In this document: piece after piece, positions 29,132 to 57,400 of the stretch
Position numbering within the stretch: the stretch's first letter is position 1
Layout of the letters: every line of letters begins with the position of its first letter
IMG/VR virus record: IMGVR_UViG_3300034283_000433
Span: 4,323 to 68,322 of that record
Strand: one strand, 5' to 3'
DNA: 64,000 bases
From: a virus
Notes under the pieces: model-generated
The model's database searches: none
What the model was told of the DNA's origin: nothing
What the model saw: only the letters and a program-made list of their open reading frames with translations
Made by a program: the position numbers and the translations under genes

Positions 29132-29755
29132 TTATATTTTATCTAGTGCATCATTTGTTGAATCTTGAGGCGTAGCCTTTCTAGGTCTAAGCTGATTCAT
29201 TACTAAATTGATGATGTCTGTAATATATTCTTGAGGTACGTTAATTTCTGCATCTAAATCAGAAGTCTCTGTACTTACCATTCTTACTATTGCAAATCTA
29301 CCAACTAAATTGGTATAACTCTTAAACCAAAGCTTTTTTCCTTCTACCCAATAAAATATTTTACTAGGAGGCTGCTTTAAATTATCCATATAGTCTAACT
29401 CTCTTGGAGAAACAGGTATTGGTGATTTAGCCAAGCCTGTACTAGTAGGGAATGTAACTGTAGATATACCATATCCTCTAGATAATCCAAGTGGAACTTG
29501 AGGTAAATCTAAAGAGTAGTATCCTGTATCGTTATCTTTTGTAATAGCTAAGTTTTTAAATGTCGCATAAAAAGAATCTGCAACAGTCTCTATACCATCT
29601 AGCTTAATAGCATCAGTATAGTTTACTTTAGCCATATAAGCTATAGCTTCGTTAATATATAGATTAATTTCTTTCTCTGTTATATTAGCATCGTCAGTAG
29701 GTATGCCTCCGTAAAGCATACGTCTTATTTGCTCTATCAAAACTCTTCTAGTCAT
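29132..29755 (-). CDS. Tail ring/adaptor structural protein
   Basis: 207 aa; synteny with adjacent ring genes. Confidence 0.6.
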   Translation of the reverse strand: MTRRVLIEQIRRMLYGGIPTDDANITEKEINLYINEAIAYMAKVNYTDAIKLDGIETVADSFYATFKNLAITKDNDTGYYSLDLPQVPLGLSRGYGISTVTFPTSTGLAKSPIPVSPRELDYMDNLKQPPSKIFYWVEGKKLWFKSYTNLVGRFAIVRMVSTETSDLDAEINVPQEYITDIINLVMNQLRPRKATPQDSTNDALDKI

Positions 29756-30435
29756 TATTGGCCTTCGTTTTTAATTGTTTGAGATACTCTAAGCAAATCA
29801 CCATCTTTTAAATTAATACCTATAATTCCAATTGCTCTGTAGATAATTTCATTCATATCTGCATCACCCCACTCTGGTTGAACAGAACCTGTAGTAGGAA
29901 CTACAGAAGGCCCACCAGCAGCAGAATAAACCAAGTTACCAGTATAAGCCCAAACCATTGTATTTGGATTTCTAATGTATCCAAGTATAGGAGCTGCTAC
30001 ATTTGATGGGTAAAATTTAAAATTATCACCAAACTCCATATAAATAGCATCTGTAGTTGTAGGTGCATCTATTGGGTTAATTAAGTGGTTTGCAAGATTA
30101 TCATCAAATACCTTCTTTATAGGTCTATTAGTAGATGTTCTTAAAGATGTAGCCGTATTCATATTTGCAGGCTTAGGTGCAACCCCAGATGTAACAGTTA
30201 GGCCTGTTTCTGTATAAAACTTTGATAATCTATCAGATATAGCAGAATTTACAATAAGGCCTGCTGGACTTTTTCTGTTATTACTATTAACGTTACCAGT
30301 ACCATCAACAAGTGATTCTAAATACTGCGATTGCGCCATATTTATAATACTATTGAAATCTTCTGGAGACAAATACGTACCCTGATATTTATCAACAAGG
30401 TAGGTTACTATTTTATATACTTCATCTATAGTCAT
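29755..30435 (-). CDS. Head-tail adaptor / tail tubular protein
   Basis: MTIDEVY..V...K.QG.YLSPEDFN....AQ and Y.R.P...WAY motifs. Confidence 0.7.
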   Translation of the reverse strand: MTIDEVYKIVTYLVDKYQGTYLSPEDFNSIINMAQSQYLESLVDGTGNVNSNNRKSPAGLIVNSAISDRLSKFYTETGLTVTSGVAPKPANMNTATSLRTSTNRPIKKVFDDNLANHLINPIDAPTTTDAIYMEFGDNFKFYPSNVAAPILGYIRNPNTMVWAYTGNLVYSAAGGPSVVPTTGSVQPEWGDADMNEIIYRAIGIIGINLKDGDLLRVSQTIKNEGQ

Positions 30436-30450
30436 ATTGCAAATATAAAC

Positions 30451-30476
30451 AAAAAAGCCCCTATAGAAATAGGGGC
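30451..30476 (-). terminator. Intrinsic terminator with UUUCUA loop
   Basis: GCCCCTA-TTTCTA-TAGGGGC followed by T6 on - strand. Confidence 0.8.
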
Positions 30477-30512
30477 GATTTAACCAATGAAACCATATAA
30501 CACAAAGCGCAT
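30451..30512 (-). ncRNA. Candidate 3'-UTR-derived antisense sRNA
   Basis: U-rich 3' UTR segment complementary to start regions at 53020, 54258, 54561, 46780 and 57389. Confidence 0.45.
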
Positions 30513-31433
30513 TTAGGCTTTCACCATACTCTTTAATTCAATATAGAAGTCTCTGCCCTTTTCTGTTAAACAGAACTCTGAAACAAACTCAGCTGGCTTT
30601 TTGCCGTCTGGGATTTGTACAATAAAGGTCTTGGTTTCACTCCATACTGCTTGACCCTTCACGTGGGTAAAGTTAATTAAGTTCTTTTCAACTGCTCTAT
30701 CTACGATAAACTTAGATAATACAGTTGGGTTATTATAAGTCTTAATAAACGTATCTGACATCTTATTAGCAATATTGTAGTATAATGGTCGTAATGCCAT
30801 TTCTGATACAAAGTTACCTTCCTTGTCTTTTACGTTGATTCCTAAGAATTTAGCGTGAGGTAACATAATGTCGTAAGGAGCTGTCTTAGCTAACTCTGTA
30901 GCGTTCATTTCACTCTCAAACTTCTTATAGTTAGCTTGCTCAATAGCCTCTTCGTCAACCAATTTAAAGATACCTCTTGATTCAGGTAATCTGTGAGGAT
31001 TAGCCTTATTCATATTAGTAACGTTTAAAAAGTGTACTAAAGCTGTCTTTTGAGCTGGCACTCTTAGTCTACCCCAAACAAATCTAATCTCAGGTCTTTG
31101 TCTTTTCTTAGCGTCTGATAGCTTTTCTTGTTCATCTACCCAAATAGTGTTTACACCCTCTAGGTATCTGATTTCTCTTTCTGTACCTGTTACGTGGTCA
31201 AAAATTACATCTGAGTTTCTAATAATGTAGTTTTCTGGGAATGGAGGTCTAGTACTGTTAACTGTGTTTACTTGAAACTTCTCAGTAAGTTCGTACTCGT
31301 ACCACTGCTTTTCCTTCTTTTTCTTAACTGGTTCTGGGATAAATGTTGCAGCTTCTTGTGATTGTTCCGTGGCGATTTCCACTTCTACAATATTACCATC
31401 TGCATCAATGGTTTGTTTTTTTGCTTTTGCCAT
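30513..31433 (-). CDS. Conserved protein downstream of capsid gene, function unknown
   Basis: 306 aa, own promoter element at 31457-31464. Confidence 0.7.
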   Translation of the reverse strand: MAKAKKQTIDADGNIVEVEIATEQSQEAATFIPEPVKKKKEKQWYEYELTEKFQVNTVNSTRPPFPENYIIRNSDVIFDHVTGTEREIRYLEGVNTIWVDEQEKLSDAKKRQRPEIRFVWGRLRVPAQKTALVHFLNVTNMNKANPHRLPESRGIFKLVDEEAIEQANYKKFESEMNATELAKTAPYDIMLPHAKFLGINVKDKEGNFVSEMALRPLYYNIANKMSDTFIKTYNNPTVLSKFIVDRAVEKNLINFTHVKGQAVWSETKTFIVQIPDGKKPAEFVSEFCLTEKGRDFYIELKSMVKA

Positions 31434-31465: not shown

Positions 31466-31497
31466 ATAAAAAAGAAAACCCCACCATAAGGTGGGGC
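31466..31497 (-). terminator. Intrinsic terminator after capsid gene
   Basis: GCCCCACC-TTAT-GGTGGGGT then TTTCTTTTTT on - strand. Confidence 0.8.
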
Positions 31498-31518
31498 TCT
31501 CTATATAATCTGTAAAGA

Positions 31519-32856
31519 TTAGTAAGTAACGCTGATGTATTGATTTGCAGCGAACACTTGGATACCGCAGTATGCCATATGATGCACATTCAATTCCATC
31601 TTGTCTGAAGTTGGAGTCTTAGCTAATGCACCAGTCTCCCAAACTTTCACTTCTTTACCTGGCTCAACTTCGTTGTAAACCATACGTAATGAAGGTAATT
31701 TGTCTCCAGTTTGAGCATCTCTTCCCTCTTTCATTGGGATTAAGATACCGCTATTCTTGTACAAGCTTGTAGAAGGAGCAACTCCGTATACAGCTTCAGC
31801 ATTGAATGGTAAGTACTTCTTCAAGTGGAAAGTTGTACCATCAATCTTTAATGAATCAAAACCGTACTTAACAGCTACGTCTTGAGAACCACCTGCGTTA
31901 GCCCAAACAATAGCACCGTTTTGGTACTTAGTGAATAAAGCGTCATCAACAGCTGTTCTTAAGTAGCTATCCATTAAGAAGTGATACTCTTGAGCACCAC
32001 CGTTAAAGTCAGCTAAACGAGCTAAAGCGTGGAAATCTTCAATTGTGAAAGCTGAGTCACCACCCCATTGGTAGTTTTGACCACCAGCTTTGATTTGAGG
32101 AATCAAACCAGTTGTACCTACAGTTCCAGTGATGTTTGTAGCAGCACTACCGAACATTAACTTGAACTCTTTGTTGTTCATAAAACGACGTACAGCTTCA
32201 TCTAAACCTTTGTAAGTGTAGTAAGCTTGTCCGTTTACTTCAAAGTATAATTCTTCAATCTTAGCACGGTCAGTGATAGAGAAATCTTCACGAATTTCAG
32301 TTGTGTAGAAAGTCTTTCTTTCAGTCAAACCAGTTAAAGAATTGAATTTAGTAGAAGCTTCACCAGCTTCAGTAATACCTCTGAATAATAAGAATGCAGT
32401 TGAAGTAGCACCTAAATCATCGTTAGCATCAATTGTAGCGATTAAAGGCTTAATAGTACAAGTTGCAGCAGTTGGTACAGTCATAATCTTGTACTGAACA
32501 CCAGTTGCAGCGTTCTCTACAACTTCACCTACACGTAATGGAGATTTACCACCATCAATGTAGCCTGCAGCGATTTCTACTGCAATTGCGTCACCAGCAG
32601 CTACAGTAGCTAAAGCACCACCGTTTAATTGTACAGCTGAATGTAATTTTCCTTTAGATTCAAAGTGGAAGAATTCACGAGAAGGAACTGTAGCCTTCAT
32701 ACCTAAAGCTTCCAATAATTGTGTATAGTTTTGAGAACCATACTTCTCAATAAACTTATCGTAGTATTGAGGTTTTAAGATAGATAAGTCAGAAACGAAC
32801 TGGCGACCTACTTGGCCTGCAGTTGGTTGAACATTACCTGGTTGTAATACTGGCAT
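31519..32856 (-). CDS. Major capsid protein
   Basis: 445 aa after scaffold; strongly biased codons; followed by terminator. Confidence 0.85.
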   Translation of the reverse strand: MPVLQPGNVQPTAGQVGRQFVSDLSILKPQYYDKFIEKYGSQNYTQLLEALGMKATVPSREFFHFESKGKLHSAVQLNGGALATVAAGDAIAVEIAAGYIDGGKSPLRVGEVVENAATGVQYKIMTVPTAATCTIKPLIATIDANDDLGATSTAFLLFRGITEAGEASTKFNSLTGLTERKTFYTTEIREDFSITDRAKIEELYFEVNGQAYYTYKGLDEAVRRFMNNKEFKLMFGSAATNITGTVGTTGLIPQIKAGGQNYQWGGDSAFTIEDFHALARLADFNGGAQEYHFLMDSYLRTAVDDALFTKYQNGAIVWANAGGSQDVAVKYGFDSLKIDGTTFHLKKYLPFNAEAVYGVAPSTSLYKNSGILIPMKEGRDAQTGDKLPSLRMVYNEVEPGKEVKVWETGALAKTPTSDKMELNVHHMAYCGIQVFAANQYISVTY

Positions 32857-43244: not shown

Positions 43245-43629
43245 ATCTTCGTATTGACTTATTTAAAATGAAAACGAAGATACGTCATTTTGCAGCCTAA
43301 AACTCAATTTGACGTATTTTTTTTACAAAAAATTGAAAAACACATATTGATTTACAACGTGTTACAAGGTTTCCTTCTTATATATATTATATAGAATTCT
43401 ATAGTCTGTTTATAGTCCACTTATTTATATAAAATACTGGACAATCTATAGGAGCCTGGAGGCTCTTGTTTATGTAAGGAATGTAACCGTGCAAGGGAAC
43501 TATATAGTAATACTGCGCATAGTGCCTAGGTGAAAGTCAAATCCTGCAACCGAGTACCCCTAGATTCAAATTGATTATCAAGCAAGTAATATAGGAAAGT
43601 AACCTAGATAGAAAGGTAAATAGATATGC

Positions 43630-43781
43630 TAATGTGTATATTATACACTAAGTAATGTGTAATAAATACACTAACGAGCGTAAGCGATAACCCCTACGAA
43701 AGAAATCGTAAATCCTAAACTCTAATCCCTACTAAACTAATAGACTAATGCTTTATAACTAATGTGTAAAATGTACACTAA
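43630..43781. repeat. Three 22-bp repeats TAATGTGTA-N5-TACACTAA with palindromic core
   Basis: Copies at 43630-43651, 43653-43674, 43760-43781. Confidence 0.9.
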
Positions 43782-43944
43782 CTATAACTCCGAAATGCTT
43801 CGTAATCAAGGGTAAATGTTAAAATTCCTTTAACACATTTCCTGCCATTTAGGGGCGATTTTAGCCCGTCTCCATCGTTTTGGATGTCTACCCTTGGACA
43901 CTCCGAGAAGTGCCAAATTTGGGGAAATGCGCCTTACCTCTAAT

Positions 43945-44003
43945 TGCGCGCGCGTATGTACGCGTGTGTATGTGTGCGCGTGTACGTGTATGCGCACGTA
44001 TGC
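43945..44003. other. 59-bp strictly alternating pyrimidine-purine tract
   Basis: TGCGCGCGCGTATGTACGCGTGTG...GTATGC checked base by base. Confidence 0.9.
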
Positions 44004-44099
44004 CTGCGCGCTATATCCTTATACCACAGCTGTAAAAAATCTTTTAACAAAACCTTAACTAGGCTGTTGATTGCGGTATCAAAACTATTTTGCAGTTTT

Positions 44100-44436
44100 A
44101 CAATGTCAACGGGGACGACCTAATGACACAGCTCTTTTAACGTTTCTTTAACACTCTTGCATACCTGACCTCAATAAGTCACTTAGTCACTGCAAGTATG
44201 GTCTCGCTAGGCTTTCCGCTGTAAAGCGTTGTAGCAATCACGAAGAGTGAGAGAGACCCATCCGATGGTTATGATGGTGCATAAACTCAACCCTGCTTTT
44301 GGTTTCCCTAGGACTATAGGCAGTAAAACTAGGCGACGAAATGGTTCAGTTCCATAGTAGTTGAAGATGGCGCGTTTAAAAACGTTAGCTGTTCGGAGCG
44401 TTGGGTGACAGCAATGCCCTCTAAAATAACGATGTC
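44100..44436 (+). ncRNA. Structured RNA upstream of hammerhead (unknown class)
   Basis: GC-elevated, no ORF in the track; several multi-branch helices with G-U pairs on + strand. Confidence 0.6.
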
Positions 44437-44484
44437 CGCGGATAAATTACTCCGCGCTGATGAGCTGCAGAACAGCGAAACATT
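44431..44484 (+). ncRNA. Type III hammerhead ribozyme
   Basis: GAUGUC^ / stem I CGCGGA-UCCGCG / CUGAUGA / stem II GCUG-CAGC / GAAA / stem III ACAUU; cleavage predicted after 44436. Confidence 0.93.
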
Positions 44485-46573: not shown

Positions 46574-46780
46574 ATGAAAGAGTTATTTAACATTTATGTA
46601 GTATATAATCCTAAAAAAGAATATGTAATCAGATGGGAATCCGACAATAGTATAGTGTTGTATGGTAGCGAGCTTGACGCTACATATGACTGCAACGAAG
46701 ACGAGATTGTTATTACTGCAGATAAACTAAATAAAAAATATCAAGACGAAATATTATTGGAACTTAAACAATTAAACTAA
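46574..46780 (+). CDS. Hypothetical early protein
   Basis: Repeated TTATCTAAACTA leader. Confidence 0.65.
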   Translation: MKELFNIYVVYNPKKEYVIRWESDNSIVLYGSELDATYDCNEDEIVITADKLNKKYQDEILLELKQLN

Positions 46781-46787
46781 TAACACA

Positions 46788-47204
46788 ATGAACTATTCAT
46801 TTTATCTATTCGTAAACTTACGAAATGCCATACTTGGCGAAGGTGTTGAGTACGATTGTCAGTATGGTATTGACCAAACAATATTTGCAATGTACGAGAA
46901 ATCAAAGTACAATGAAGATAACACACCCGAGTACGAGTGTATGGTCAACTTCTTAAACGCATACAAGGACAATAAGATTGACATCATTATGGACAGCTTT
47001 AACAACTACCTAAACAAACACGATTGGGTAGTATTGCTTGATGAAAGCGGTATCAGTCACGACTTTCTTAAGCCTAGAAGAGGCGATGTATTGCAGTTTA
47101 TTAGAATCAATGACAACGACTCTACTATAGGTGAGTTCTTGCACTTACCCAGCAATCAACCGCTAAACATATTCGCTGACCGCACACTTAAACTAAATAA
47201 ATAA
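46788..47204 (+). CDS. Hypothetical early protein
   Basis: 138 aa, A-rich leader. Confidence 0.65.
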   Translation: MNYSFYLFVNLRNAILGEGVEYDCQYGIDQTIFAMYEKSKYNEDNTPEYECMVNFLNAYKDNKIDIIMDSFNNYLNKHDWVVLLDESGISHDFLKPRRGDVLQFIRINDNDSTIGEFLHLPSNQPLNIFADRTLKLNK

Positions 47205-53010: not shown

Positions 53011-53026
53011 TAAAAACAATTAACCA

Positions 53027-53782
53027 ATGATAACATTAGAACAACTACAAGAGCGACCACTTAGCTACAGCTCACTAAAAGAATTCGCTAAGAGTCCTCG
53101 TCACTACCTAGACTATCTAAACAGAAAGAAGGAGACTACAGCTCCTATGCTGTTTGGTAGTATGGTACACTGCCTATTGCTTGAACCATCTAAGTTTAAC
53201 GAAGAGTTTGCTGTGATGGGTACAATAGATAGACGCACATCTGCAGGAAAAGAAGCATACGCAAAGTTTGTAGAAGAGTCTGCAGGTAAAGAAGTAGTTA
53301 TGGAAAATGATTACAACGAGGCGAAAGGTTTAGCTGATAATGTTTTATCTAATCCTAAGTTAGCTCCGTGGATACATAACTGTCATCAATACGAGCAGGA
53401 GTTTCGCGCTGAAATGTGGGGTCTACCCGTACGTGGTTTCTTTGATGGTATAGCAGAAGACTATATACTTGAAGTTAAGACTACGATGGATGCGTCACCA
53501 GAAAATTTAATGCGTGACTTTTATAACAGACAATACCATATGCAGGCTGGATTGTATAATCTAGTTTCAAATAAACCTATCAAGTATCTTATCATAGAAA
53601 CGAAAGGCCCTTACGATGCGTACATTGCAGATGCAACAGAAAACTATATCAAGAAAGGTCAGGAGCTGTTTTCAGATACTATTGTTAAGTTTAACAAATG
53701 TATGGAAGACAATGCGTGGACTAAAGGATACGAATACCATAATAACAATATTACGATAGACCTGCCATCGTGGGTAAAATAA
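53027..53782 (+). CDS. RecE/exonuclease VIII-like PD-(D/E)XK exonuclease (DUF3799-like)
   Basis: LSYSSLK, GS..H..LLEP, RG..D.....EVKTT, Y..QA..Y. Confidence 0.85.
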   Translation: MITLEQLQERPLSYSSLKEFAKSPRHYLDYLNRKKETTAPMLFGSMVHCLLLEPSKFNEEFAVMGTIDRRTSAGKEAYAKFVEESAGKEVVMENDYNEAKGLADNVLSNPKLAPWIHNCHQYEQEFRAEMWGLPVRGFFDGIAEDYILEVKTTMDASPENLMRDFYNRQYHMQAGLYNLVSNKPIKYLIIETKGPYDAYIADATENYIKKGQELFSDTIVKFNKCMEDNAWTKGYEYHNNNITIDLPSWVK

Positions 53783-53783
53783 A

Positions 53784-53814
53784 TTTGGCAGTTTCGCAAA
53801 AGTTTGTATATTCG
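53784..53814 (+). promoter_or_regulatory. Bacteroidota-type promoter
   Basis: TTTG-N19-TATATTCG. Confidence 0.65.
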
Positions 53815-53818
53815 CAAT

Positions 53819-53874
53819 GGGTTTTCTCATCATTGTGTTAAATATAGGGGGTGCTAGGCATAGATAGTACCCCC
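53819..53874 (+). ncRNA. Candidate sRNA or leader: antisense seed plus 10-bp hairpin
   Basis: UCAUUGUGUUA(A) complementary to starts of genes at 46574, 46788, 57397; hairpin GGGGGTGCTA/TAGTACCCCC. Confidence 0.45.
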
Positions 53875-53889
53875 AAACTTTAGAAACTT

Positions 53890-54252
53890 ATGGGTAGATT
53901 TGATACCTTAAAAATAAATACGAGATTCCTGCCTATATCAGATGCGCAGGAGCTTGAAGACCTTTCGGATTTGGAATTCCAAACGAAAGACCTAGAAAAA
54001 CAATTCTTAGAATATGAAGTAGGCGAAGATGGTTATTTGTATTTTGAAGACTACGAATACGAAATGATACCATCCGACAATCCTGAAGGACTATTTAATA
54101 TTAACCTAAGAAAGATTAACCAAACCATTAAAAAAAGCTACCACACAGGTGACGTTGAGTTTTACGGGAAACCTTGGGAGTATATGTATACATTCAAGGC
54201 ACACTTCCAAGACGGGAAACTAGAAAGGGTAGACTTGATAAACAAAGAATAG
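53890..54252 (+). CDS. Conserved phage protein
   Basis: MG.FD...FQTKDL...F.DGKL motif. Confidence 0.7.
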   Translation: MGRFDTLKINTRFLPISDAQELEDLSDLEFQTKDLEKQFLEYEVGEDGYLYFEDYEYEMIPSDNPEGLFNINLRKINQTIKKSYHTGDVEFYGKPWEYMYTFKAHFQDGKLERVDLINKE

Positions 54253-54266
54253 ACCACTGAAACCAT

Positions 54267-54500
54267 ATGACGACAAAGAACAAGGGTATAAACAAAGCAA
54301 AATTAACCAAACAATACCCACAAGTAGCAAAGATTGTAGATGCCATCCTTGAAGAAAACAAGAATGATAACTATTGGTTTTATGTAAACTATTGTGGTAA
54401 ATATAAGGACAAGAATGGAGCTGCTAGAGCAGTTTCTATGGGCTCTATTTTTGACCTTCTAACTAACTACGGATATAAGATTGATATAATAGTAAAATAG
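54267..54500 (+). CDS. Hypothetical protein
   Basis: 77 aa. Confidence 0.6.
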   Translation: MTTKNKGINKAKLTKQYPQVAKIVDAILEENKNDNYWFYVNYCGKYKDKNGAARAVSMGSIFDLLTNYGYKIDIIVK

Positions 54501-54584
54501 TTTAATACGGACATACAATCACACGCCCTGCGTTTCTACGTGGGGCTCATTTTGAAAATTTTTAACCAATAAAACATAGACACA

Positions 54585-54911
54585 ATGTCACAAGAACAAA
54601 CACAAAGAAGCTCAATAGGAGCTTGGAAAAGACAAACACCAAGAGGTGAAGTAATTAACTTTACAATCAACGGCCAGAAATATAATATGTGGCCTAACAC
54701 GAAGAAGTCTAACGAAAAACAACCTGACTTCAACATCTTGGAAGACAACTACGTTCCTCAACCAAAAGTAGCTGTTCAACAGCCACAGCAACAATATGTT
54801 GCACAGCAACCTCAGTACGTACAACCTCAACAGCAGTATGTACAACAACAGCCGCAGCCACAACAACCTCAACAAGGTTATGTTCCTGCTGGCAACGGAT
54901 TGAATTTCTAG
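54585..54911 (+). CDS. Putative single-stranded DNA-binding protein
   Basis: IGAWK...K.NEKQPDF small beta domain, Q/P-rich tail ending in Phe, upstream of primase-helicase. Confidence 0.6.
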   Translation: MSQEQTQRSSIGAWKRQTPRGEVINFTINGQKYNMWPNTKKSNEKQPDFNILEDNYVPQPKVAVQQPQQQYVAQQPQYVQPQQQYVQQQPQPQQPQQGYVPAGNGLNF

Positions 54912-57041: not shown

Positions 57042-57400
57042 AATACTCCTCTAGCTTTACACACGACCTAGCCTTTGGAGAAAAGGCAGAGGATTGGGTA
57101 AACGATATTTTTAAAAATGGAAAGAAGGTTGAAGTTAAGTATGACAGGATTGCTCACAAGACAGGGAACATATTCATAGAGTATGAGTCAAGAGGCAAGC
57201 CTAGTGGTATAGCTACAACAGACGCAGACTATTGGATTTATAAATTAGAAAAGACAGAATGCGCTATAATTCTACCTGTAGAATACCTAAAAGAAAAACT
57301 TCGTTCTTATTACCACGAAGGAATATATTTAATCAATGGAGGAGATAACAATACGTCAAAAGGATTTTTAGTACCAATAAATAAAATAATAACACAATGA
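57038..57400 (+). CDS. PD-(D/E)XK nuclease-like protein
   Basis: VEVK.D.....TGN.FIE..SRGKPSGI..T.ADYW. Confidence 0.75.
   Translation: MKYSSSFTHDLAFGEKAEDWVNDIFKNGKKVEVKYDRIAHKTGNIFIEYESRGKPSGIATTDADYWIYKLEKTECAIILPVEYLKEKLRSYYHEGIYLINGGDNNTSKGFLVPINKIITQ

Follow-up and report, generated by a model that had tools for sequence, protein, structure and literature searches.

A conserved tail of a putative late phage mRNA is complementary to, and may silence, the translation start of an early gene

Results

In an uncultured lake phage, the mRNA of a virion-module gene ends in a conserved, unstructured tail that probably serves as a late-to-early trans-antisense element with mainly one target, the translation start of a 77-aa gene in the recombination/replication module. 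We give the reading in which the tail base-pairs in trans with this start and represses the 77-aa gene a probability of roughly 0.5, and a base-pairing element of this kind rates somewhat higher once a version with several targets is counted in. A sequence-only reading of the same DNA had listed the 77-aa start only as an 11-nt match among others; what stands out from the background is one extended duplex with it.

A single-stranded tail between a stop codon and a terminator

The window, that is, the whole stretch of 64,000 nucleotides analysed here, is most of a 68-kb IMG/VR virus record. Minus-strand genes fill a block from 1 to 43 kb that includes portal-like and virion structural proteins, and plus-strand genes lie at 44-59.7 kb and include those for an ERF-family annealing protein, an exonuclease, and a primase/helicase. 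From the gene content of each block, together with its strand, we infer that the minus strand is transcribed late and the plus strand early or in the middle of infection. The two divergent blocks are separated by a gene-poor stretch of 1.2 kb (43245-44460) that holds an alternating purine–pyrimidine run of the ACGCGCGC/ACACAC type. Start regions are A/C-rich and have no Shine–Dalgarno sequence, which fits the Bacteroidota-type initiation proposed in the sequence-only reading and does not by itself prove the type of host. The features around the tail are the following.

30513..31433, minus strand: 306-aa virion-module gene whose mRNA bears the element (ORF; matches only PHROGs of unknown function)
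30477..30512, minus strand: 36-nt single-stranded 3′ UTR element, RNA CGCUUUGUGUUAUAUGGUUUCAUUGGUUAA, with its conserved core at 30480-30509 (sequence, fold, and conservation)
30450..30476, minus strand: intrinsic terminator, an 8-bp G+C-rich stem (30476..30457) followed by a U run (terminator scan and fold)
30436..30449, minus strand: conserved TTTATATTTGCAAT directly before the ATG of gene 29755..30435 (sequence; kept in all relatives)

A gap of 77 nt separates the minus-strand genes 30513..31433 (306 aa) and 29755..30435 (226 aa) and contains, in the order of that strand, the TAA stop, 36 nt (ATGCGCTTTGTGTTATATGGTTTCATTGGTTAAATC), the 8-bp G+C-rich hairpin, TTTTTTG, and TTTATATTTGCAAT, after which the next gene begins with its ATG. 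The stop codon of the 306-aa ORF (30513-30515) adjoins the element on the same strand, the hairpin (30476..30457) and U run flank it on the other side, and the element is unpaired in the centroid of a 112-nt fold. Centroid fold and terminator scan therefore agree with the earlier claim that the segment is single-stranded and capped by a terminator on the late minus-strand transcript. A position between stop codon and terminator and an accessible single-stranded seed are the anatomical marks of a 3′-UTR-derived base-pairing RNA, and both are found here. RNAalifold, applied to 18 relatives, recovered the hairpin only in part because the stems were misaligned. The terminator loop (30457-30476, minus strand) reads TTTCTA in 8 of 18 distinct relatives despite differing stems, the others having TTCTC, TCTCTA, or similar.

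On the far side of the terminator, TTTATATTTGCAAT resembles what we take to be the Bacteroidota −7 box (TAnnTTTG) and is presumably a promoter box. Read as TTTATATTTGCAWT, the same stretch (30436-30449, minus strand) is kept by every one of the 29 IMG/VR relatives and stands immediately before the ATG of the next gene. Should TATATTTG indeed be a Bacteroidota −7 box, transcripts of the gene that follows the terminator would have little or no leader.

The 306-aa protein has 91 homologs and no Pfam family. Its AF2 model (pLDDT 71) is largely helical, including the C-terminal half, and found no fold match in the PDB, capsid-like or other, so that the gene is probably not that of the major capsid protein. 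As a lead only, the neighbouring 445-aa gene (31519-32856, minus strand) seems the likelier candidate, the ESM-Atlas look-alikes of its protein carrying the SU10_MCP and Crass_capsid families with scores of 0.98-0.99; the capsid origin first proposed for the tail is thus not upheld. The 445-aa gene has its own terminator (31502..31473), and because the 306-aa gene is closely preceded by this terminator and a TATATTTG box and followed by another terminator, it resembles a unit with its own promoter and terminator. GenBank phages gave no DNA or protein match to the 306-aa gene region. Among metatranscriptome contigs from four runs, a few pieces of 100-190 nt cover the 306-aa gene and its neighbours, and 30410-30775 is covered by none, which is uninformative either way.

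Other readings of the tail were considered and set aside. A minus-strand mini-ORF (MRFVLYGFIG) has its ATG replaced by CCT or ACG in relatives, and a plus-strand mini-ORF (MKPYNTKRI) has no ATG in the G004, G005, and G016 types; since the start codons are not kept, a mini-ORF cannot explain the element. Nor does the element look like a promoter: inspection by eye found no TTTG/TAnnTTTG arrangement on either strand, and a sigma-70-type scan gave nothing over it. A search of 30300-30700 against Rfam returned nothing near any threshold; the best of 14 matches up to E 10 was JA04, with 25.2 bits against a threshold of 81, and the C4 family was absent among the 14.

One extended duplex with the start of the 77-aa gene

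54267..54500, plus strand: 77-aa early/middle gene in the recombination/replication module (ORF; protein conserved)
54251..54283, plus strand: predicted target site, which opens with the stop codon of the preceding 120-aa gene and extends into the 77-aa gene as far as codon 5-6 (best non-self duplex)

The 77-aa protein has homologs at 44 IMG/VR loci and in 21 of 26 related records. It belongs to no Pfam or PHROG family, and its AF2 model is confident (pLDDT 88); as to its function, Foldseek against the PDB, VIA-align, and the ESM Atlas gave nothing reliable. The predicted target site spans −16..+16 relative to the ATG at 54267, the duplex itself reaching from −16 to about +12..+16, and the region is unstructured on its own (−4.3 kcal/mol). 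When the 36-nt tail was paired with 88 start regions, that of the 77-aa gene came out at −33.1 kcal/mol, ahead of −22.1 for the runner-up. The 25-27 pairs, two of them G–U, form an almost unbroken duplex, interrupted by one mismatch and one bulged target base. For comparison, 250 dinucleotide shuffles of the tail gave a best-of-88 energy of −21.2 kcal/mol on average (sd 2.3, lowest −30.1), and 743 random genomic 36-mers averaged −17.6 (lowest −30.5). Over the whole window, both strands included, the 77-aa start is again the best non-self site, at −34.3 kcal/mol vs −28.3 for the next. The random-segment null is heavy-tailed, with values near −30 about once in 250-750 trials, and the energy from a single genome is therefore suggestive, not decisive, and would by itself fail a genome-wide search. 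Ungapped identity between the tail and the 77-aa start is 20 of 30 positions, which is chance (the shuffle maximum was 19-21 in most of 300), and the signal emerges only when G–U pairs and one bulge are allowed. With the element at 30.5 kb and the target at 54.3 kb, a cis-encoded antisense RNA is excluded.

Conservation of the element and covariation with its target

Relatives here are related lake phages, represented by metagenome loci, three IMG/VR contigs, and additions from a profile scan. The 30-nt core is unchanged in every metagenome relative and in every one of the three contigs whose sequence reaches it, while variation is seen in the adjoining coding DNA, in the three bases that follow the stop codon, and in the hairpin stem. 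A further 26 IMG/VR relatives, more distant at 46-50% protein identity, came from the profile scan, and a recognisable element, GCTT(C/T)GTGTT..TATGGTTT(C/G/T/-)ATTGGTT, is present in 29 of 29 IMG/VR loci, in each of which it precedes a variable hairpin and then a conserved T run and box. The stems differ between relatives, the hairpin still forms, and the T run is kept. In the distant relatives G009-G011, a 28-nt core identical to that of the window follows a coding end identical at 99/155 positions; across all relatives with an identical 28-30-nt core, the last 150 coding nucleotides are 99/155 to 116/153 identical (64-76%). Since the core is identical where the flanking coding DNA has diverged, the element is clearly under selection. 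Between close relatives (loci L002-L008 compared with 30400-30545 of the window), the types of 306-aa 3′ end, hairpin, and next-gene N terminus combine differently, and because these are reshuffled the conserved intergenic module looks like a recombination joint.

Each genome's tail was paired with its own 77-aa start in the 24 genomes that carry both parts and in four records from a second scan. Twelve of the 24 (group A) reach −30.7 to −37.1 kcal/mol and the other twelve (group B) only −15.6 to −21.0; the four records (group C, 4/4) stand at −13.5. Pairing with the 77-aa start is thus seen in 12 of 28 related genomes, and 16 keep the element without it. Membership of group A does not merely follow closeness to the window: G016 pairs with a 77-aa protein 48% identical to that of the window, whereas G020 and G021 (51-54%) do not. 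In all eight group A genomes tested with their own sequences, the 77-aa start ranks first among 57-98 start regions.

Four variants of the tail occur within group A. They differ at three tail positions, and the target answers at all three, in one case through a one-base deletion common to both. A C-to-U change in GGUUU[C]AUUGG of the G004 and G005 tails goes with G to A in the target; in G016 that C is lost from the tail and the matching G from the target; and a U-to-C change in GCUU[U]GUG of the G005 tail goes with A to G in the target, which changes Thr to Ala. A tail change of A to U at position 11 is accompanied by a shifted bulge. In a swap test every one of the 8 targets paired best with its cognate tail, and among 24 permutations the true assignment ranked first; because there are only four independent tail variants, this test cannot reach below P about 0.04, and a further pattern scan of IMG/VR gave no new tail variant. 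The fit has exceptions. Four of the five distinct targets of the window's tail variant have one uncompensated mismatch in CCAATG, at varying positions, and in G005 a site in a coding region (−35.6 kcal/mol) beats the start region (−31.1). The start of a 168-aa late-strand gene in G005-type phages also pairs with the tail, at −30.8 kcal/mol. For telling RNA from DNA by the asymmetry of G–U and A–C combinations, the informative sites are too few to discriminate.

Trans complementarity beyond chance, conserved and covarying, is accordingly found at −33 to −37 kcal/mol and in four variants, in 12 of 28 genomes only. Covariation of seed and target, which the sequence-only reading had proposed as a check, is positive for one target, the 77-aa gene. 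Whole-genome scans of six group B genomes revealed no alternative outlier target, and because groups B and C keep the element without the pairing, with no replacement target in these six, the element must have a role beyond pairing with the 77-aa start. On a more speculative view, since every relative retains it, the element might have a broader anti-leader role late in infection, the 77-aa pairing being one specialised use of it. Group C keeps a G/U-rich tail of a different sequence, and the late-gene tails at loci L145, L148, L149, and L151 (G043, G046, G047, and G049) are G/U-rich with a different sequence.

Alternatives to pairing with a single start

The element could instead serve the late mRNA itself, as a signal for 3′-end stability, processing, or termination or as a G/U-rich landing pad for a protein, the fit to the 77-aa start being a by-product of its resemblance to a leader in reverse. 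Such a role would agree with the fact that the 29 IMG/VR relatives of the 306-aa gene all have the element, whether they show the 77-aa pairing or not, with its position always directly before the terminator, with the G/U-richness of the differing group C tail, and with random segments that occasionally reach −30 kcal/mol. It leaves unexplained, however, why the 77-aa start follows the tail changes in four variants, among them a shared deletion and an amino-acid-changing substitution, and why that start comes first in 8 of 8 genomes, and we regard it as unlikely.

The sequence-only reading had described the segment as a concatemer of seeds, a small RNA whose separate 9-11-nt matches would silence the genes for the exonuclease and for the 77-aa and 108-aa proteins, together with two others. 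The plus strand at 30479-30505 reads TTTAACCAATGAAACCATATAACACAA, and all five short matches proposed are exact and lie where they had been placed; those outside the 77-aa gene are as follows.

53020..53030, plus strand: TTAACCAATGA over the ATG of the exonuclease gene; duplex only −16.1 kcal/mol
54561..54570, plus strand: TTTAACCAAT, within the leader of the 108-aa neighbour of the 77-aa gene; duplex energy between −20.6 and −22.1 kcal/mol
46780..46788, plus strand: ATAACACAA, 9 nt, at the start of the 138-aa gene and repeated at 57389-57397; a word of a leader family common to several early genes

The exonuclease label is confirmed by a match to phrog_412 (E 3.4e-52), whereas the label SSB finds no such backing, the 108-aa gene at 54585 having only a sub-threshold DUF736 match. 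TTAACCAATGA occurs at 30480 and 53020 (2 matches vs 0.03 expected) and TGAAACCATAT at 30488 and 54258 (2 vs 0.04), and TTTAACCAAT is found at 30479, 54561, and, on the minus strand, 63669 (3 vs 0.59) and ATAACACAA at 30497, 46780, and 57389 (3 vs 1.25, chance level). The 27-mer shares at least 9 nt with 5 of 40 plus-strand start regions (−25..+6), dinucleotide shuffles averaging 0.66 (P 0.0032 as a per-segment figure, 5000 shuffles). The excess over shuffles recurs in G001 (5/35, P 0.015) and G002 (7/40, P 0.0005), and late-strand starts are unenriched (0/48, 1/27, 0/40). With the 77-aa gene excluded, it persists in G004 (10/38, P 0.007) and G005 (6/41, P 0.011), and in G007 the leader of the gene after the 77-aa homolog (locus L055) carries, right up to the ATG, 20 nt that are perfectly complementary to the late tail of the same phage.

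Against several seeds stand the following results. Four loci across the 43 kb of minus-strand transcription (8851, 22693, 30479, and 39596) reach five or more such matches, so that the short-seed count alone fails a look-elsewhere correction. Without the 77-aa gene, 3 of 37 early starts in the window share at least 9 nt (P 0.066), the other seven group A genomes range from P 0.007 to 0.61 (G009, G011, and G016 at 0.09-0.61), and six group B genomes have 0-2 matches (P 0.14-1.0). The enrichment over shuffles that had been named as a check therefore holds per segment, not over the minus strand, and is marginal once the 77-aa gene is left out. Early leaders share words in any case, such as TTTTTAACCAAT after terminators and TAACACAATG, and for this reason any leader-like string matches several of them; ATAACACAA and TTTAACCAAT are near chance frequency, and the duplexes of the other proposed targets (−16 to −22 kcal/mol) fall inside the shuffle range. 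The leader of the 108-aa gene is the second best start region, yet inside that range too, and is a weak candidate for a second target. With the residual count at P 0.066, group B unenriched, and A/C-rich leaders sharing words, the concatemer is not borne out, and shut-off through many separate seeds is improbable. Within the preferred reading, the shorter matches to other early leaders may be weak side targets, clearest in G004 and G005 and near chance in the window. Taken as a whole, the proposal of an antisense 3′-UTR tail on a late transcript keeps its tail, its terminator, and its complementarity to early starts and loses its several seeds, its capsid source, and its SSB label.

A plus-strand stretch between the exonuclease and 120-aa genes (53784-53889) is organised as TTTG-N19-TATATTCG, then GGGTTTTCTCATCATTGTGTTAAATATA, then a 9-10-bp hairpin. 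Its CATTGTGTTAA mirrors the TTAACACAATG found in the leaders of three genes (46574, 46788, and 57397), and TTGTGTTA is common to it and the 30.5-kb element; this stretch may be a second anti-start RNA.

Self-control of the kind described for icaR, in which the tail would fold back on the start of its own 306-aa gene and damp or time its translation, would give all relatives a common role and account for conservation where the 77-aa pairing is absent; the icaR 3′ UTR, which pairs with its own Shine–Dalgarno region, is a precedent (PMC3868564). For 10 of 17 distinct sequences, 6 of the 10 group B types among them, pairing with the own start (−35..+15) is better than shuffles at P ≤0.05, and the own start ranks 3rd of 80-90 in G015 and G020. 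The energies are modest, however (−11.5 to −20.3 kcal/mol, within the shuffle range for the best of all starts), the window itself gives −17.7 kcal/mol (shuffle P 0.085) and the G004 and G005 types P 0.39 and 0.27, and the signal rests on words common to many leaders (AACCAAT, AAACCAT). Self-control is, on this balance, quite improbable.

Finally, the two loci could be a feature of the DNA that involves no RNA pairing, either two copies of a protein-binding site, for instance that of a phage regulator, or a repeat kept alike by gene conversion. Both copies read the same way on the plus strand, so that a shift in binding preference or a conversion would alter them in step. The phage encodes an ERF-family annealing protein and an exonuclease, and its 77-aa protein weakly resembles small DNA binders of the helix-turn-helix-like kind (best Z 4.3, others 2.5-3). 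This reading is nevertheless very improbable, given that these fold matches are below any reliable level, that similarity stops exactly at the duplex ends, that each genome has only two copies and group B keeps one alone, and that the spacing of the halves differs between copies (the target has one base more in the window type and in G004, though not at the same place, and one base fewer in G005), which counts against a rigid DNA site because a duplex tolerates spacing shifts that a rigid site usually does not.

Discussion

The pairing of tail and 77-aa start suggests a mechanism in which a separately promoted and terminated late mRNA, that of the 306-aa gene, ends in an unstructured G/U-rich tail of 36 nt before its hairpin, and this tail would pair in trans with the site at which translation of the 77-aa gene begins (54267), acting either as the whole mRNA or as a fragment protected by the terminator. 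Because the predicted duplex of 25-27 bp spans the start codon, from −16 to about +12..+16, the ribosome landing site would be covered, and a helix of this length is also a plausible substrate for RNase III. Synthesis of the 77-aa protein would then stop once late transcription is under way. To our knowledge, Bacteroidota-type hosts lack Hfq, and complementarity this long may make an Hfq-like chaperone unnecessary. That the two RNAs meet, that the effect is repression, and that the timing is late on early are deductions, the last from gene content and strand. The wider proposal, that in uncultured Bacteroidota-type lake phages an abundant late-mRNA tail acts as a chaperone-free "anti-start" RNA that co-evolves with and silences an early start, is tentative and for the present doubtful.

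If the wider proposal holds and extends to other phages, late-mRNA tails that mirror early starts would be a common means, so far undescribed, of timing phage genes without Shine–Dalgarno pairing or Hfq. As an mRNA with two functions and a long trans duplex, that of the 306-aa gene would offer a clean case from nature, and the natural compensatory variants make the pairing directly testable. It would also provide a handle on a widely conserved 77-aa early protein that apparently needs to be off late in infection. A full-text literature search (a limited set of main texts) found no description of a late tail pairing with an early start.

Temporal control in phages relies mostly on transcription factors, sigma factors, and antitermination, along with a few protein repressors of translation. 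In T4, the translational repressor RegA and the endoribonuclease RegB are protein effectors that shut off early mRNAs; the system proposed here would likewise silence early translation starts as infection proceeds, but its effector would be RNA. Bacterial small RNAs derived from 3′ UTRs, such as CpxQ, DapZ, and SroC, come from host genes, use short seeds of ~7-12 nt, and depend on Hfq or ProQ. The phage tail shares with them the terminator of a coding mRNA and a seed in the single-stranded stretch before the hairpin. Unlike the enterobacterial examples, it has a predicted duplex of 25-27 bp and a host in which Hfq is likely absent, and it is known here from sequence.

A 3′-UTR counterpart that acts on a translation start is icaR of Staphylococcus aureus, in which a 7-nt anti-Shine–Dalgarno motif in the 3′ UTR pairs with the start of the same mRNA, blocks initiation, and creates an RNase III substrate (PMC3868564). 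In both, a 3′ UTR motif is complementary to a translation start and the predicted mechanism is alike; in the phage, by contrast, the strong partner is the start of another gene and pairing with the own start is weak. Among phage RNAs, lambda produces the small RNAs PreS, LPR2, and 6S, of which PreS acts on host dnaN with Hfq, and a preprint (10.1101/2024.10.31.621285) raises the action of late-operon RNAs on early-operon RNAs as a possibility only; UTR-derived candidates from Pseudomonas phages are reported without known targets (PMC10914365, PMC11512511). As excerpted, these lambda and Pseudomonas transcriptome studies describe no late 3′ tail that mirrors an early start; their RNAs resemble ours in coming from phage operons, some of them from 5′ or 3′ UTRs.

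The c4 antisense RNA of phages P1 and P7 (Citron and Schuster 1990, via PMC5320573) is a structured RNA of 77 nt that RNase P cuts out and that pairs through two loops; it is part of a system of lysogenic immunity and shares an operon with its target. Here, in contrast, the candidate effector is an unstructured late-mRNA tail that would form one long duplex with a target 24 kb away in an apparently lytic, Bacteroidota-type phage. The two nevertheless have in common a phage RNA that belongs to a longer transcript and a trans action, predicted in our case, on the ribosome-binding region of another phage gene (PMC5320573). Moreover, in both, effector and target differ in step between related phages, and in c4 it is this that sets specificity (PMC5320573).
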